DNA of 62,289 nt, filler included, from Globobulimina sp. (GCA_003354225.1; 17 parts of 17 records of this genome joined end to end with filler, not necessarily neighbours in it), one strand, 5' to 3'; numbered from the whole stretch's first letter, positions 1 through 58,623 are shown. The notes: a model not told the origin generated them from the sequence alone. Program-made: numbers and translations.

Positions 1-3000
1 CGAGGGCGAGCGCGAGGGGTTTGATGCCGACGCATTCGACGACTTTAATGATAACTATAACCGATATGATGGTTTCGCACAAAATTATTATAACCTTCCC
101 AATGGACCTTCACCGAGTGACCTTGTGCCCGATGATCCCTCCGATTTTCCAGGGCCTGTTCCCAATGAACGATATTACGACAGATACGATGATGATGGCC
201 GAATCCTTCCAGGTCCCAACGAGGACTACGATAACTATGACAGATACGGTGATGAAATCAGTGGTGGTGGCGGTGCCTATTATGACGATGGATTCGGTGG
301 TGGTCTGCCTGGCCGTCCTGTATTAAGTTTAGTGTTTATTTCGGTTTGTATGTCGTTTAATTTTGCTTTGTTGACTCACAAAATATTTATATTTTGTATC
401 TACTTGTAACTAAAACAAAAGTCGAAGTCACTGCCTGTGATGGATGGCATTATGGCTCAACGTCTAACTCTTTGCAACTGCAATTGAATGGACAATATGA
501 CTCCTCGCGCATATTTTACGTGAATAAATTCAGTTCCTTGCCTACCTTTGGTATGTCTTATGTGTACAGCGCGTATATGAATTATTATGATGTGTACGGC
601 AATTTATTTTCGATTCTGGTGTCTATGGATGATGTCTACGGTTATTGCATCAAAGGAATATCCATTTTATTGCTGCCCTATTGGGACAATTCAGATTCAG
701 ATGGCATTTTTGATGGATCTGATTTTTATGGCTCACAGGGCACATTGGAGGAGTTATTCCCACATTTGAGGAGGAACCCAAATGCAACCATCAATTCCAC
801 GACAACCGCACCACCAACAGATGGATATGATGGGTATTATGGTGGCGTAAGCTATGAAGCAAGATATGATTTTTATTATGATCAGTTTGGTTTGGGTGTG
901 ATTTTCAGCAAACAATGTCGATATGCATACAGGTCCTTAACTACCCATCGCGTCATGGCGCCTTGTTTTGATAATATTGAGTTTTATATCGGTGCTCCGC
1001 GTGGCTTGTTCAAGTTGGTGGTGCATACGTGCCAACATCCAGACTCTGGTATCAGTGCCTTGGAGATGTCCGGCGGTAATGTGTATAATGCGATTATGGG
1101 CAAACCGGAGAAGGAGAATGTATACGTTGCCACGGATTTTGATTTTATGGGACATGTACAAGTTGGATTAGTGGATTTGGACCAATTGGGACATATTATC
1201 GCAGGCAATGTCATGATTGATAAGTATAGCAATGGGCACGGAAATAGTAATAACAATAATAATGGAAATATGAACAATAATAACTATGGAAATAGTAATA
1301 ATGGGCATGGTAACAGATTATTATTAAATGGGAATAGTTATAATGGTGGAGGTGGTTCGTATGGTTATGATTATGCGTTTTATTCGCGCCATGTGGAAGG
1401 CAAAATTATTGGGATCAAATTGGAAGCGGTTGGATATGAATCGAATAATAATTATTATTTTAATCAGAGAGATCAGGAATATTTTCATTTGAAGATTAAC
1501 GGAGTTGATGCATATATTCATAGTGTTTCTATATTGGGAGAGGGACAATATTTGGTAGCGTTTATAATGGAGAAAGAGCGGGTTTATGTGACCAAAACTA
1601 CGGAGTTTATTATTTTTGGAGATTTCGTGAATCATTTATATTTGAATATTTATGTCATTTTTGACGGCTTTAATGAAAAATATAGGTTGCCGTTTGTGGT
1701 GGAAGAGTGGGAGGACACATCTGATGCTGTTGAGCCTGAGCCTGAGCCGTATGAAGAAACGCCAGAGGAATATGATACTACGACTACTACAACAACGACG
1801 ACCACGACCACTACGAGTACCACTACGACCACTGCGGCGCCTGAAGAATATCCGGATTATAAGCCAGATGAACCAGATGAACCAGATGATAAGGAATATG
1901 ATGCAACCACAACCACATATTATCCAGACGTTGATCCTTATCCACAAGTTACAGACAAGAAAAAAGCTAAAAAGGGTAAAAAATCGTGGGATACTTATGA
2001 CAAATCGTATGATAATGGCAATGAGAACAATGACCGGTATGATTCTCGAGATGACAAATCTTATGATGGACATGGTGGTAATTACGATAGCAAGTCGTAT
2101 GGTGACAGAAATGATCCGAAATCTTCTTATGACGACAAATATGATGGTAATTATGATGCAAAATATCCAAAATCTTATGACAAATCTGCTGACAGATATG
2201 ATGCCAGAAATTATCAAAGATATGGAAGGGGAAATGATCAAAAGTATAACGGAAGAAATGGCGCAAATTCAAGAAATAACAACGGGAGAGGTGGCGGTGG
2301 CGCATATAACGGAAGAAAATTGCTACAACGTAATAATAATAATAACAACGGAAACAGCAATAATAATAATAATAACAGAAACGGCAACACCAACAATAAC
2401 AATAATAACAACAGAAATAGTAATAACAATAATGGCGGTAATAATAATAATGGCGGTGGAGGTAATAACAATAACGACAGAAATAGTAATAATAATAATG
2501 GTAACAGTGGCGGTGGCGGTGGAGGTGGAGGTAATAGTGGCGGTGGCAACAGTGGCGGTAATATGAATAATATGGGAGGACCAGAGTATGATTCAAAGAC
2601 AAATTATCGTGCAAGTAGCAAAGATGAACATTACGAACAATATTTCAAACAAGACCAAGACTCGCAATATAACAAAGATTTAAACAACGAAGGATCATAC
2701 ACCCATTCTGATGATAGCAAATATACTTTCAATCCCGGCGATAAATATGAAGCCCCGATGCCCAATGATTTAGACCATGAATATACAGAAAAGGAGGAAC
2801 ATGAACACGTCACAAAAGAGCCATACATCAAAGAGCAACATGGTATAAACTGGTTTGATGCAAACGATAAATGTGAGGAGAAACATGGGACCTGGTTAAC
2901 TTCCATACATTCCAAAGACGAAAATTTTTTGATTTCAGGGTTTGTTGGCTCAGACTATAGCGCCTGGATTGGATTGGCAGATTTTGACATTAATTCCATG

Positions 3001-12271: not shown

Positions 12272-13755
12272 TCAATCATCATCCTCCCACACACTTTGTC
12301 CTACAAAATAAAATGAGATACAACAACAACATACCAACGACCAGCCACAACCAGCCAGCCACAATAAACAATGAGAAAAAAGGACAGCGTCACCGTATAG
12401 GCAGTGACTATTTGATTTTTGGCGGCTTCCACGTGTTGCACCATGAGAGAAATGAGAGTCTCGCCCAACAAAATGAGCACGAACGCGCCCATTCGCTCTG
12501 CGATATGCGGCACATTGATGGGGATATTTATGCCCAGCTCGCGGACACACTGCAAATAGGCACATAGATGAAACCAGGAATAGACGAACAAAACGGCATA
12601 GATCAGGGTCCAAATCCATTGCTGATTGGCGGCGATGCTCACAAACAGCACAATCGACATCGCAGCGGCCATACTGACTGCATTCTGAATCACCATATAC
12701 ACGGAATGCGCCTTTGCCCGCGGAATAAAGTACGACTTCATGAGCATGACACAGAAGACGAGTTTGGTCAACATATAGGAAATGAGGAACAATTTCTGCG
12801 AGCTCTGTTTACCGGAATTCCCGATGCTTAGTCCCATCATCAGCACCAACGACATATAGAAGAAGACCAGCAAAGTGTCGCCAGTCTGCGTCATCCGAAA
12901 TCGCGAGTGGTACAAAACCTGTTCCAGCCAGCACAGAATGAGCAGTCCGAATTGCGGGAAAACCGTCAGAATGAAGATATATTGGCCGTGCTGATAAGCG
13001 TCGGCCGCTTCGGAGGAAATGTGGACGATGGCGGCCACGAACATGAGGTCAAAGAACAACTCGACCCAATGCGGCTTCAGCTCCTCCCAATTGCGGTGCT
13101 CGTCGTCGTCCGACTCGATGGTGTTCCAATCCTGTCGCACGGAGCCACGCAGCACTCCGCAATGTTTGTCCACGGCGATGCTGTACAATTTGTGGTGCAA
13201 TAAGGCCGAGGAAGGGATGAACATATCGCCGGTGGAGGCGCACAGTGTGCGCGTTGAGTGGGTGCACCATTTCAGAGGTTTGGCAGGTTTGGAGTTGCAA
13301 CTGTCGGAGTTGTGAGAGTGAGACAGTTGTAATTGTGTTATGTTGCCAGATGCGGGAATTAATAGATATTTTAATTTGTGTAATGTCTTGTTGATGGAAT
13401 GGGAATTTAGAGGTTGCTGCTGATGGCGGTTTGATTTCGAATTCTGGTTTTTTTGAGAGACGTGATCGAGAATGAGGCTCTCGACGTGTTCGTAGATTTG
13501 TTTTGAGGAAATGTCGGGTGTTAATGATAGATTTGGCGTCACAAAAACTGGCCGTTGCAATGCTTTTTTTGTGTGCTCGAGATCCAGAATCGGAGATATA
13601 TTGTTTTGTTCATGATCAACGAGCGCCAGAAATTGGTTCATGTCATCGTCATCGTCGCCGTCGGCTGAATCCTGAGAGTCAGAGTGGTCAAAGCCGGAAA
13701 CCGGTTGGAAGTCTTCCGTTAGTTCGACGCAAAAATGTTTGTTTGGGCTTGACAT
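12272..13755 (-). CDS. LtrA (low-temperature requirement A) family membrane protein with long N-terminal extension; 3' end uncertain
   Basis: WVELFFDLMFVAAI and HIAERMGAFVLILLGE motifs, several TM helices. Confidence 0.85.
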
Positions 13756-42246: not shown

Positions 42247-43542
42247 ATGTCTTCCCCATCGTACGTACTTGTTGAGTATACCAACCAAACAAGAAAAAGT
42301 TACATATATATTATGTATATAGTAATCACACCAAATACATCAATCCATACTTCCCAGTTCAAGGCGAATGGAGCAGGAAATCCTACAAAGCCTTAATGAA
42401 AGAAATTCGTTCAAAATTCGCAATCGATTTCGACCAAGCCCTTGAAATCAAAGTCTATGACAAAAACAACGACAAATACTTCTTCATCGATAAGAATGAA
42501 ATGAATTTCATTCCTCGCGGTGGACTTATCCGTGTCGTAAAATCCAAGACCACATCGCGGCAAAGCCCACGCAAACCGCCTCCCAAATCGCCTTCTAAAG
42601 CCAGCACCAAACCGCCGGGAGTCCCTCCGCACTCCAAACAAGACGACCAACGCCGCAATCAATGGAGAATCAACAGTCGCGTCGAGGTCTACAGCGAAGA
42701 GCCGCGCAAATGGCAAAAGGGGCAAATCGAAGATATCTTCAACGACGCCGAGGGCGAATGGTTAGTGATAAGATACGCTGGCTTTCGCACCAAAGAGATC
42801 CAACGATTCAGTAATTACATCCGACCCATTGCGCCCACTCCGACTGCAAAAGCGGCGGCCAAATCTGCGCCCAAATCGCCACCAAAAGCCAGCAAGAAAA
42901 GCCCCACCAAACCCAAGGCCAAAAAGGCAGAAAAGATCACCACACAAAGCAAGTATCGCAAGAAGGAGAGCTCGGAAGTGAAGGAGAAGGAGAATGAGAT
43001 CCATATCAGTGGCAATGCGCAGCATCTCAAGCAATATATTGACCGCGCCTGCGTCTTATTGCGTGGCTATGACAGTATGCAGCGGGCCGTGGACGAGGAC
43101 GAGAAAGGCGGGCCGACGTACAATGTGATCGAATTGGTGGGCCGTGGCCGCGCCATGGGAGCGGTGGTGAGCACCGCGGAGATTGTTAAGCGGATTGTGG
43201 CGAAGTTGCATCAGGTGACGATATTGGAGAGTGCGGAAGTGAGTGAATGTTAAGTGCATTTTCGGGAAATTTCTGTGTGAGTTCTGTTGGATTTGCGTGT
43301 TGTGTGTACCGTGTACGTCAGGTTGGACGCCGTTGGAACAGGGTTTGGTTGAGGTGGAGACGCGGAGATCGGTGGCGCAGTTAAGGGTGATTTTGGCGGT
43401 GGACGATGGCGACATTGATAGGGAGCAATGCGGATATCAGGAGCCCATTGCGAGGGGCGATTTCGCTGCGAATTTGTCGTATCGGTATGAGGGGAAAGGG
43501 AGAGGTGGCGGCGGTGGAAAAGGGAAAAGAGGACGGGGTTGA
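42247..43542 (+). CDS. Alba (Rpp25-like) protein with N-terminal Tudor/Agenet-like domain and RG tail; introns ~42299-42357 and 43249-43321
   Basis: ENEIHIS..GRGRAMGAVVSTAEIVKRIVAKLHQVT..WTPLEQGL..GYQEP..GRGGGGGKGKRGRG. Confidence 0.88.
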
Positions 43543-54957: not shown

Positions 54958-55078
54958 NNNNNNNNNNNNNNNNNNNNNNNNNNNNNNNNNNNNNNNNNNN
55001 NTTAATTAATTAANNNNNNNNNNNNNNNNNNNNNNNNNNNNNNNNNNNNNNNNNNNNTATTGTACGCAATAAAAGTCA

Positions 55079-55290
55079 CTCCTATTACAAGATTGTATAC
55101 AATTTTCCTCCTATTACAAAATTGTATACAATTTTCCTCCTATTACAAGATTGTATACAATTTTCCTCCTATTACAAAATTGTATACAATTTATTTTAAG
55201 CAATAAAGGGCCCTCCTATTACAAAATTGTATACAATTTATTGTAGTCAATAAAGGGCTCTCCTATTACGAAATTGTATACAATTTATTG
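55079..55290. repeat. Tandem array of six palindrome-containing units
   Basis: CTCCTATTAC(A/G)A(A/G)ATTGTATACAATTT starting at 55079, 55108, 55137, 55166, 55213, 55260. Confidence 0.95.
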
Positions 55291-55514
55291 TGTTCAATTT
55301 TACAAGCAGCCTAAACCGCCCACGCACAAACGGCCTAGAAACACACCCAGAGAGGCCTAAAGAGTTTAAATCAAAGAAACTATCCTTTTATTAATTGAAA
55401 AATATTACGACAGTAAATTGAAGAACCTATCTTTTACACAAAGTAACTATGTTACAAGACATCAATATTTAAAAAAATATCTAATTTGGAAGTCGTGGAA
55501 ATGACATAGATCAG

Positions 55515-56129
55515 TTAATATAATGCTGCTGCATATAGAGCCTTAATTTTGTTATTAACTTCCACACACTTCTTGCATAACATAAACTGTAGACTAAGCT
55601 TATCATTAAGTTTAAAAGGTTTCAATGTTTTAGAAAGTCGAAAGCAACTGCCACACATGTAAATTTGATAAGATAGTTGAGGTTGCCCGATATTAATCAG
55701 TTGAATATTGTTTGTTTCATTGACAGTTGTAGATTTAGTCATTGGTGTTATTTGAACCTTTGACATTGTTTGTGTTCCTACATCTGATGTAGTTTCTGAC
55801 ATTTCTTCAATCTTTTCCACCTTTTCACATTCTTTGTTTGATGTCTGAACAAATGCAGCTTTTGGTGGTTCTGTTCTGTTGTCTCTTACAACTGTTGTTT
55901 TATTATTATCGATTCTCTTTTTGACCTGTTGTTCTAATTTTTTTCTTATGTCCTTCGGACGAAGCCCCAATCTGGCATAAAATTTCGTTTTGTGTCCTTT
56001 TGATTTCAAATGGTTTTCCATGTGAGCCGATGTTTTGAACATCTGTGAACATATTTTGCAACTATGCATTTTGTGAATTTTTTTAATTTCTTTCTCTTCA
56101 CTCGACATCTTTCGTTTTCTACTAACCAT
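55515..56129 (-). CDS. Zinc-finger protein (C2H2/matrin-like plus C-terminal C4)
   Basis: CKICSQMFKTSAHMENHLKSKGH; CGSC..LCKKC; basic N-terminus; intronless. Confidence 0.8.
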   Translation of the reverse strand: MVSRKRKMSSEEKEIKKIHKMHSCKICSQMFKTSAHMENHLKSKGHKTKFYARLGLRPKDIRKKLEQQVKKRIDNNKTTVVRDNRTEPPKAAFVQTSNKECEKVEKIEEMSETTSDVGTQTMSKVQITPMTKSTTVNETNNIQLINIGQPQLSYQIYMCGSCFRLSKTLKPFKLNDKLSLQFMLCKKCVEVNNKIKALYAAALY

Positions 56130-56569
56130 TTTAGGTTACACAAAGAAAGTAAATATAAAACTCAATTTATATTACAAAAATAGTGTGTAAATTAATGTTT
56201 TCAATCTCCTACTATGAAATTGAAGACAATTTATTTTACACAATAAAAGGTCTTCTTACTACGAAATTGCATATTACACCTTTTGACACCCTTTCTTTCA
56301 GAAACTAAAAGAATTTCCTTTACAACATAATGCATAATAACTAGCACTAAGTTGCACAGCACTATGTTTTTGTTTTATTCAAAATAATGTTTTTATAAAC
56401 TTCTAGCGAGATAGTTTCCTTTGTCTTCCATTTTCCAGTACGCAATGCTTAATATGCAAATTAGCGGAAGCGTGGGAGGCCCCCTGATACAATAATTTGC
56501 ATATTACACGTGGCATACCACATAGTCATGTATACCTATACTGTATCCAAAGAATCGTATTATTCAAAT

Positions 56570-57340
56570 GACTGAATCATATGATTCAATTGATTCATTC
56601 TAATGAATCATTTGAATCATTGTAATGAATCATATGATTCAAATGATTCAAATGATTCATGGAGCATATTCCATATATGTTTGGGTGCCATCCACCTTTT
56701 ATCCAACATTGTAACTGCCGCGATTTAGTCATTTGGTTAGATTGTAGCGGTTCCACAGTTGACCAACTGTTTTCATATATATCCTCACATAAAAGTCTGT
56801 GATTTGACAATTTCTAGAAAAATCGTTTAACCTATCGTTTTCCTAAGTATTTCGAAAAATGCCTAGCAACTGATTGGCAACAAGGCTTGTCTTCTGATTG
56901 GTTGAGTTATCAAAAGGGGGCGGGGCATATGTTGTAAGAAGACGAATCGCACCATTCCGCTGTCGACAAAGTGATTTCGTATACTTTTCGAAAACATGAA
57001 AGTCTCTGATTGGATGGATATAGTTTTCCTATGTATTTTCGAAAAAGGCTAGCATCTGTTTAGCTACAAGGCCTGACTTCTGATTGGCAGAGTTATAAAA
57101 GGTGTGAGGCATAAGTAGTATGAAGACCAAAGGACTTCCAATGAATCATATGAATCATATGAATCATTGTATTGAATCAATTGAATCATATGATTCATTC
57201 CAACGAATCATTTGAATCATTCCAATGAATCATTTGAATCATTGTAATGAATCATATGATTCAAATGATTCAAATGATTCATGGAGCATATTATGGACTG
57301 TACATATATTTGGGTGCCATCCATCTTTTATCCAAACTTT
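56570..57340 (+). repeat. Direct partial duplications of a module with TGAATCA/TGATTCA microrepeats and CTGATTGG boxes
   Basis: 56592-56705 recurs at ~57215-57335; 56830-56930 recurs at ~57020-57120. Confidence 0.9.
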
Positions 57341-57350
57341 TTATGAATCA

Positions 57351-57382
57351 GGTATAAATATGAGGAGCATAGTTGTGACAGT
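57351..57382 (+). promoter_or_regulatory. TATA box plus CAGT initiator-like motif
   Basis: TATAAATA at 57353, CAGT at 57379, ATG at 57424; AATAAA at ~58097 after the stop. Confidence 0.55.
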
Positions 57383-57423
57383 ATAGTGTAAGTAATAGCG
57401 GTTTTTATATATTTCAACACAAA

Positions 57424-58059
57424 ATGGCTAACTCAAAAATGTGCAGATATTGCAATAGGACGTTTTCTTCCAGTTCAAATCGACATCGCCATGAAGTATA
57501 CTTTCACCGTCAGGACAATGATAATGTTTATAACAATTCCCCAGATGAAGAGGTAATGGAGAGTGAAGGTCAAATAGAAGATTATTCCAACAGCGACATT
57601 TCTAGTAATGATGACGATGACAAAAATGATTCCGATTCCGAGAGCGAACAAGATATAGATGATGATGGTGACAAAGAACATTGGGCTAGCCTAATTAGAG
57701 AAACGTGTCAAGATGTAAAAGATCAAATCAGGACCGCCGACCTGATTTTTCGCGAACCGTTCTTCAGCACATTTTTGGAAACACTCCTTTCAAACCTGAA
57801 TGATCGACTCAAATTTGCAGATTATATGAAATATAAAGATAAAGTTTATTCCAAGATAGCCCAAACTGCTGACAAGTATACGGAAGACCAACTTTTAGAT
57901 GGCGATGAAGCTTTTGAAAAAGCCTGGAATGATAGAAAGTTTCTATTAAAAAATATCCTTCGGAATTACTATAAAGTAATCGAAGATGAGTTTGCAAATG
58001 ACAATGAGGATAATGAAGAGGATGACAATGAGTCTGTACCCTCTCAAGAATTTCAGTGA
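57424..58059 (+). CDS. C2H2 zinc-finger protein with acidic tracts and a helical C-terminal domain
   Basis: CRYCNRTFSSSSNRHRHEVYFH; intronless. Confidence 0.85.
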   Translation: MANSKMCRYCNRTFSSSSNRHRHEVYFHRQDNDNVYNNSPDEEVMESEGQIEDYSNSDISSNDDDDKNDSDSESEQDIDDDGDKEHWASLIRETCQDVKDQIRTADLIFREPFFSTFLETLLSNLNDRLKFADYMKYKDKVYSKIAQTADKYTEDQLLDGDEAFEKAWNDRKFLLKNILRNYYKVIEDEFANDNEDNEEDDNESVPSQEFQ

Positions 58060-58219
58060 TTTAGTTGTTGGTTACCTACTGTTCTGCATTACATACAATA
58101 AAAAATGCTTCAAAATTGTCTTTTACATCACTCCCAAATCTCTTTGTATCCGTGCCTTTTTTCGATTGTGACGAATAATGTTTCACATAAAGCATAAATT
58201 GCACAAACGAACCAATAGT

Positions 58220-58623
58220 TTGAATCATATGATTCATTTGATTCATTGGAAGTCCTTTAGTTTCATAGTACTTAATACCCCGCATCTTTTATAACTCAGC
58301 CAATCAGAAGTCAGGCCTTGTAGCCAATCAGATGCTAGCCTTTTTTCGAAAATGCATAGGAAAACGATAGGTTCAACGATTTTTCTAGAAATTGTCCAAT
58401 CAGAGCCTTTTATGTGAGGATATATATATATGAAAACAGCTGGTCAATTGTGGAAGCACTCCAATCTAACCAATTGACTAATTGGCGGCAGTTACAATGT
58501 TGGATAAAAGATGGATGGCACCTAAATATATGTACGGACCATAATACGCTCCATGAATCATTTGAATCATTTGAATCATATGATTCATTACAATGATTCA
58601 AATGATTCATTGGAATGAATCGT
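58220..58623 (-). repeat. Inverted copy of the 56592-57180 module
   Basis: Reverse complement shares GGTGCCATCCA, TTTTATCCAACATTGTAACTGCCG, TTTCTAGAAAAATCGTT, CTTCTGATTGG. Confidence 0.93.

Follow-up and report, generated by a model that had tools for sequence, protein, structure and literature searches.

A divergent pair of zinc-finger genes and its repeat arrays

The DNA analysed here (the window) is a 62,289-base stretch of the Globobulimina sp. assembly GCA_003354225.1 and consists of 17 contigs of ≈3.57 kb each, with N/TTAATTAATTAA spacers between them. This report concerns the contig at positions 55058-58623, which is exactly one of the 17, has a G+C content of 33%, and contains only two open reading frames (ORFs) of at least 100 aa. 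These ORFs, designated ORF1 and ORF2, are divergently oriented and lie among repeat arrays and promoter-like modules, as follows.

55079-55298 (no strand): tandem array of 29-bp and then 47-bp units, 3' of ORF1 at the left end of the contig
55515-56129 (minus): ORF1, 204 aa, intronless, divergent from ORF2
56206-56273 (no strand): further copy of the 47-bp unit, diverged (79%) and located upstream of ORF1
56552-56670 (no strand): copy 1 of the TGAWTCA array, nine sites at 56573-56659
56675-56923 (plus): copy 1 of a promoter-like module, with a GGGTGCCATCC box, a spacer, two CCAATCAG boxes and a degenerate TATA
57019-57109 (plus): partial direct duplicate of the CCAAT part, 78% identical to 56833-56923 and ending in TATAAAAG
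57136-57283 (plus): copy 2 of the TGAWTCA array, an imperfect palindrome with 13 sites at 57142-57281
57136-57335 (plus): array copy 2 together with a GGGTGCCATCC box, the box lying directly upstream of the ORF2 TATA box
57353-57382 (plus): core promoter of ORF2, with TATAAAT at 57353-57359 and CAGT at 57379-57382, read directly in the sequence
57424-58059 (plus): ORF2, 211 aa, intronless
58097-58102 (plus): AATAAA, 38 nt past the ORF2 stop codon, read directly in the sequence
58205-58256 (no strand): short TGAWTCA array, three sites
58275-58531 (minus): inverted promoter-like module, 88-90% identical to 56675-56914, with three CCAATCAG boxes
58543-58621 (minus): inverted TGAWTCA array at the right end of the contig, where the assembly breaks

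The TATAAAT, CAGT, and AATAAA signals around ORF2 are at canonical distances, with the A of CAGT following the first base of the TATA box by 27 nt and preceding the ORF2 ATG by 44 nt. Moreover, the core promoter, GAATCA[G/T]GTATAAATATGAG, is invariant, base for base, in the window and in two of the related loci described below (L001 and L009). ORF1 has a TATAAAT upstream (56165-56171, minus strand) and an AATAAA (55387-55392, minus strand), both likewise read directly in the sequence.

The motif TGAWTCA, which we take to be one base off the AP-1/bZIP core, occurs at 59 sites in the window. More than half of these sites (32 of 59) are in this contig, and the other 27 equal what shuffled sequence yields (mean 27.2). 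Within the arrays, sites are spaced by 9 or 13 nt. A 14th site follows those of array copy 2 at 57344-57350, just outside the part at 57136-57335, and the array at 57130-57295 scores as a DNA hairpin of -41.9 kcal/mol (z -7.07). The CCAATCAG box is also concentrated here, with seven of the 12 sites in the window (1.9 expected for the whole window); those of module copy 1 are on the minus strand at 56870-56877 and 56894-56901, and others are at 57006-57013 and 57080-57087. Arrays and modules together form a segment that is present three times: in full at 56552-56923, in part and rearranged at 57019-57335, where it leads directly into the ORF2 TATA box, and in full but inverted at 58205-58621. 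Between inverted copies, 57214-57335 and 58500-58621 are 96% identical, and 56592-56914 and 58287-58621 are 88-97% identical in pieces. At the other end of the contig, the array at 55079-55298 contains 3.9 copies of the 29-bp period (96%) and 2.9 copies of the 47-bp period (91%). A 12-bp palindrome, ATTGTATACAAT, is part of every unit and occurs six times in this contig but not at all in the other 16. Because a diverged copy is found at 56206-56273, the 47-bp repeat stands on both sides of ORF1.

The other 16 contigs contain no comparable arrays. They contain eukaryotic genes whose exons are long and open (RasGEF, RCC1, myosin head, legumain, trypsin, amino-acid kinase, and Alba) and many long ORFs without a Pfam family. 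Thus, the anatomy that the original prediction had described, namely two divergent, intronless zinc-finger ORFs, a palindromic array, duplicated and inverted CCAAT-rich modules, and a TATA+CAGT promoter with AATAAA, all confined to this contig, was borne out: both ORFs are uninterrupted and have one C2H2 finger each, the array is that of the TGAWTCA sites, and the modules recur in both direct and inverted form.

The ORF2 protein family and its loci

ORF2 comprises a C2H2 finger (C7, C10, H23, and H28), an acidic linker (residues ≈30-80), and a helical domain (residues 80-195). The finger follows the classical C2H2 pattern (C-x2-4-C-x12-H-x3-5-H plus a hydrophobic core residue), and C7, C10, F14, H23, and H28 are invariant or nearly so in the family. 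Taken alone, the ORF2 finger is sub-threshold in Pfam (14.3 bits compared to 25.2; E 0.05); the ORF2 family profile matches classical C2H2 fingers in the PDB with E-values down to 3.8e-14, and PF00096 is matched by 21 of 60 family members. ORF2 shares the C-x2-C-x12-H-x4-H spacing and the conserved Phe with Zif268-type single-finger transcription factors (PF00096), and its acidic linker after the finger resembles that of C2H2 factors of this type with an acidic region. By contrast, ORF2, a putative DNA-binding protein, has one finger only, and this finger is fused to a helical domain of ≈115 residues without a Pfam family or convincing fold match.

A word-index search with ORF2 returned five relatives of 35-43% identity. 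Their alignment shows invariant residues in the finger (C7, C10, F14, S16, N19, R22, H23, E24, and H28). The acidic linker varies, and the C-terminal part is conserved, with W87, FLE117-119, and EA-EKAW--RK-LL being invariant. A profile search of 1.84 billion representatives, with clusters defined at 50% identity, gave 617 clusters at E≤1e-3, 180 at ≤1e-10, and 27 at ≤1e-30, a diversity that fits a cellular multigene family. Nearly all members have ≈150-320 aa, mostly ≈200 aa, and besides scattered single matches only zinc-finger families were found by Pfam in 60 of them. The top match of the profile, P0006, is an acidic protein of great length (3179 aa) with many fingers, whose 38 matched stretches all correspond to the finger-plus-acidic part.

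AlphaFold models ORF2 residues 80-195 as helical, with a pLDDT of ≈97 over residues 80-190. Foldseek with ORF2 gave no match on the PDB at E≤0.001, and the family profile had no PDB sequence match outside the finger. The best result of a wide structural scan (Z 7.2) was a 57-residue helical hairpin, which is the noise level for helical models. An atlas search with ORF2 yielded clusters that were either unnamed or generic for zinc fingers and did not reach the mark for recognition, and the peptide motif EAFEKAW had no occurrence in a literature search. As judged from sequence and predicted structure, ORF2 is a member of a large family that has no name as yet and that includes a new helical domain.

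The finger of ORF1 is of a different type. Residues 22-47, near the N-terminus, form a JAZ/U1-type C2H2 finger that passes the gathering threshold of PF12171 (zf-C2H2_jaz) with 24.4 bits compared to a cut-off of 22.6, placing ORF1 in that family. Its His-His spacing is H-x6-H, as in JAZ/U1/matrin-type fingers (PF12171 and PF12874), rather than the classical H-x4-H. The middle part of ORF1 is basic and of low complexity, and a CxxC...CxxC module occupies residues ≈149-199 at the C-terminus; unlike the finger, the remainder of ORF1, including this module, has no known family. No ORF1 homologues were found by the word-index search or in IMG/VR, and the atlas search gave merely generic small zinc-finger clusters (0.90-0.91) with few features in common. 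The sole relative found is encoded by the divergent neighbour in L009, with a C-terminal module that is 33% identical over 51 aa (pairwise E 6e-10). By these features, ORF1 is a finger protein of the JAZ/U1 type, with a four-cysteine module at its C-terminus.

Loci of the family were sought with family alignments A1 and A3, A2 being too diverse. A scan of metagenomes gave 14 loci, among which L001-L011 are true family members and L012-L014 match the finger alone. A scan of prokaryote genomes gave three short contigs (L015-L017; PIVX01000203.1, PIVX01000591.1, and PIVX01000336.1) in one metagenome-assembled bin that is titled gammaproteobacterial and serves as a species representative. All three contigs have a TATA box, AATAAA, an ORF2-family gene, and 36-40% G+C; they are plainly eukaryotic and likely mis-binned. 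Eight loci are in record PJEL01, which, according to its depositors, holds contigs of a foraminifer-associated metagenome that are in neither the foraminifer draft genome nor the bacterial bins (PMC6783311).

Two of the 14 family loci have spliceosomal introns. L010 contains one GT..AG intron and L011 contains two (61, 72, and 54 nt), splicing of which restores the reading frame, and the introns of both loci are at the same phase-1 position directly after the finger exon. In L011 (positions 1-345), the finger exon is tandemly duplicated, and each copy is followed by its own GT..AG intron (72 and 54 nt). Putative acceptor-like sites are also found just 5' of the ATG in L005, L007, and L008. Moreover, on its ≈2-kb PJEL01 contig, the ORF2 relative in L008 is divergent from a Bcl-2 family gene (positions 2-454, minus strand; PF00452, 1.8e-21), whose product aligns with Bcl-xL at BH1 (NWGRIVA) and BH2 (GGW). 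Multidomain Bcl-2 proteins are not known outside animals and certain animal viruses, and this gene points to animal DNA in record PJEL01. By its introns and its Bcl-2 neighbour, the family is one of spliced cellular genes, of which the window copy is intronless.

Repeat arrays accompany several of the relatives. TGAWTCA arrays lie beside the gene in L001, L003, and L004, and tandem units of CCAAT and the ATTGCGCAAT palindrome lie upstream in L001 and L009. Downstream of the gene in L001, positions 1361-1643 form a 283-bp imperfect palindrome (79%) with a TGAGTCA/TGAATCA array at its centre, and TGACGTCA sites are found further downstream beside GC-rich repeats. The ATTGCGCAAT, TGAGTCA, and TGACGTCA motifs match C/EBP, AP-1, and CRE consensus sites, respectively. 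In L015 (positions 330-700), palindromic tandem units of ≈95 bp precede the TATA box, and their sequence is unrelated to that of the TGAWTCA arrays. Thus, an arrangement of palindromic array, TATA box, short leader, and small ORF recurs in the family, whereas the sequence of the array varies. In L009, an ORF1-like gene is divergent from the ORF2-like gene; as far as sequence comparison can tell, the ORF1/ORF2 pair is conserved in this closest relative with enough flank, a pairing that may be plain synteny among related species.

Sequencing runs and base composition

Sequencing run X1 contains 0.91 of the sampled words of the contig, and run X2, a marine metagenome from another study, contains a small share. 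X1 contigs (Logan) end at every array, which explains the ends of the contig: the assembly stops at both because the palindromic arrays are long and near-identical. Depth in X1 is ≈5-13 along the contig and was not used for ranking or copy number; the summed depth over the 29-bp array, 254 compared to 8-13 over the ORFs, is likewise not a copy number. For some X1 contigs, the match to ORF2 is confined to the stretch with the conserved motif and is lost beyond it, as would be the case for paralogues within this run. One X1 contig (depth 18.4, with a shorter side of 41 nt) joins 55343 to 56281, skipping 937 nt that include ORF1, and may represent an allele that lacks ORF1 or a different locus. 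Run X2 yielded parts of the ORF1 region, one of 160 nt with no differences and one of 191 nt with five differences and four gaps. Sister runs X3 and X4, from the same sample, contain almost none of the words of the contig and gave only a 39-nt piece of array and a 40-nt piece of coding sequence, which is no proof of absence and was not used.

The codon usage of ORF1 and ORF2 combined correlates with that of the pooled other genes of the window with r 0.63, below 15 of 17 other genes (0.68-0.89). Two ORFs elsewhere in the window, each with a third-position G+C content (GC3) of ≈0.6, deviate far more: an LtrA-like ORF (12304-13755; contig 4, 11022-14593) with r -0.09, and the Alba ORF (42276-43250; contig 12, 40388-43955) with r 0.02. 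Because contigs 4 and 12 are so deviant, the window appears to contain DNA of several organisms.

Origin of the contig

Relatives with spliceosomal introns and a Bcl-2 neighbour suggest cellular nuclear genes. We favour, at about even odds, the interpretation that the contig is ordinary nuclear chromosomal DNA, probably of a small marine animal, that was co-assembled with the main organism of the window. Considering the relatives and the promoter grammar, an animal is the most likely source of this contig. The original prediction had raised a possible animal rather than protist origin, and this suggestion gains indirectly from the Bcl-2 neighbour, the promoter grammar, and the codon usage, whereas tetranucleotides are neutral. 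The contig would then carry two small RNA-polymerase-II genes arranged head to head. ORF2 would be a sequence-specific transcription regulator, whose finger would read DNA and whose acidic region would be of the kind typical of activators. The non-coding anatomy would be promoter and enhancer material, duplicated and inverted locally, with putative enhancers in the near-AP-1/bZIP TGAWTCA arrays together with NF-Y-type CCAATCAG boxes, the TATA box, and the CAGT initiator. In the textbook finger code, the invariant helix residues S16, N19, and R22 (positions -1, +3, and +6, respectively) would specify a GA-N triplet. Such a triplet occurs in each half of TGAWTCA, a weak match.

Several observations weigh against an animal chromosome as the source. 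Tetranucleotide composition, a k-mer profile of the kind that the original prediction had proposed comparing among the contigs, does not set this contig apart (r 0.90 for the whole contig and 0.88 for its non-repeat part, compared to a mean of 0.91 for 1762-bp samples of the other contigs), and its codon usage is just mildly apart. The 19 distinct proteins among the matches listed for the family all come from metagenome collections and have neither a name nor a UniRef source, so the family is not visibly present in annotated animal proteomes. The ORF2 relative in L008 is just 33% identical to ORF2, and L008 and this contig may come from different organisms. In addition, inverted modules of ≈370 bp flank ORF2 (arms of 96% and ≈90%), and contigs this short could belong to a larger surrounding element.

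The same anatomy could belong to a contig of the window's main protist, with the ORF2 family as a lineage-specific expansion rather than foreign DNA. We regard this explanation as possible, at a level well short of the animal one. It would account for the unremarkable composition, for the lack of any match from an annotated animal proteome among those listed, for the paralogue-like contigs within run X1, and for the recurrence of the family in the foraminifer-associated record PJEL01 (eight loci) and, as three stray eukaryotic contigs, in the PIVX01 bacterial bin, whose contig names bear the same assembly label. However, the PJEL01 contigs are those that the depositors left out of the protist draft genome (PMC6783311). 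One relative adjoins a Bcl-2 gene, the promoter grammar is animal-like (TATA, CAGT, several CCAATCAG boxes, and bZIP palindromes), and the codon usage of the two ORFs correlates less with the gene pool than that of 15 of the 17 other genes tested. An unlikely explanation is that ORF2, or ORF1 and ORF2 together, are the cargo of a non-autonomous cassette of the foldback or terminal-inverted-repeat (TIR) type, the inverted arms being its ends and the arrays binding a transposase or ORF2. As in foldback elements, inverted arms of short repeated units flank a short central segment, here in the form of the modules around ORF2; direct copies of the 47-bp unit bracket ORF1, the X1 joint lacks the ORF1 segment, further X1 contigs carry the 29-bp unit, and L001 has its palindrome of the same kind of sites downstream of the gene. 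Yet neither the contig nor the 14 related loci contain a transposase, and paralogous genes of the ORF2 family are accompanied by other arrays or by none at all, in contrast to what copies of a single element would show. Moreover, the outer end of the right arm coincides with the end of the contig, where ends and target duplications are unreadable, the joint that skips ORF1 rests on its 41-nt side at an 85% likeness threshold, and the partial duplicate after the left arm looks like a local segmental duplication.

The original prediction had favoured a fragment of a Polinton/Maverick-like element or of a large double-stranded DNA virus. In such a fragment, the arrays would be comparable to the homologous regions (hr) of baculoviruses, serving as enhancers or origins, and the finger proteins would be early regulators. 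This explanation now appears the least probable of those considered. Compact, intronless, divergent genes with a TATA box, CAGT, and AATAAA would suit it, as would the occurrence of relatives in unbinned or mis-binned contigs and the Bcl-2 homologues that some animal DNA viruses encode. In baculovirus and nudivirus hr, arrays of palindromes with bZIP-type sites act as enhancers and origins, and they resemble the contig, in which arrays of imperfect palindromes, with sites one base off the AP-1 core, lie between TATA+CAGT genes. However, the contig has no viral gene and no viral relative was found, and its units are unrelated to hr in length and sequence. The likeness to Polintons extends to a compact, intron-free contig with inverted repeats and nothing more; these repeats are internal, one arm stops at the contig end, and the contig is about one-fifth of the length of a Polinton. 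As the original prediction had noted for the contig, genes for a polymerase, integrase, or capsid are not visible, and neither these (including pPolB) nor genes for a packaging ATPase or protease are present on the contig (3.6 kb) or the 14 related loci (contigs of ≤3.2 kb), genes further out lying beyond view. Pfam detects only zinc fingers in the two ORFs of the contig, and the neighbourhoods of the relatives, which the original prediction had proposed inspecting for hallmark genes, contain at least ten other ORFs of ≥90 aa, among which the five scanned by Pfam yielded Bcl-2 as the single family. Scans of IMG/VR, which may under-sample invertebrate viruses, gave no relative and no copy of the array with A1, A3, ORF1, the array, or the core promoter as queries, and the ORF2 model had no match among BFVD viral structures (best E 0.37). 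The EAFEKAWNDRKFLL motif that the original prediction had singled out is real, sits in the helical domain of ORF2, and is conserved in the family; its suggested link to ORFs of Maverick-like elements was unconfirmed, with none of the 14 family loci in a Maverick context. The 617 clusters, the two members with spliceosomal introns, and the good alignment of the L008 Bcl-2 protein with cellular Bcl-xL also argue against a viral source. It is also conceivable, if rather improbable, that the contig derives from a DNA element not yet described, either episomal or integrated, whose host is a marine invertebrate or a protist. In that case, a single-finger protein of the ORF2 family would bind the TGAWTCA arrays, which would serve as both enhancer and replication origin by analogy with IE-1 and hr in baculoviruses, and the ORF1-ORF2 pair would be the conserved regulatory core of the element. 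In a weaker form of this idea, based on the GA-N triplet in each half of TGAWTCA, members of the ORF2 family may control their own genes by way of the arrays.

The contig is best flagged as probably not from the main organism of its assembly. The stray eukaryotic contigs in a bacterial species-representative bin (L015-L017) matter for claims about gene transfer and gene content. The analysis also brings out a large protein family that lacks a Pfam family and has a confidently predicted helical domain without a PDB match, and the conserved pairing of genes with near-AP-1 palindrome arrays provides a testable hypothesis of a lineage-specific regulatory circuit. The findings would concern the biology of viruses or Polintons only if the contig continued into genes of that kind.

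Several minor observations were made in passing. Two exact 20-mer matches to the core promoter in IMG/VR were attributed to chance, as both fall within coding sequences that are unrelated and otherwise dissimilar. An Rfam scan of the window gave nothing at the gathering score, and its matches to the arrays at the E-value threshold were only sub-threshold hairpin look-alikes; a scan for bacterial promoters and terminators was at chance level. Finally, the region between ORF1 and ORF2 contains a ATGCAAAT octamer (56455-56462), the reverse octamer ATTTGCAT (56496-56503), and a GGGGGCGGGGC box (56914-56924), which may occur there by chance.

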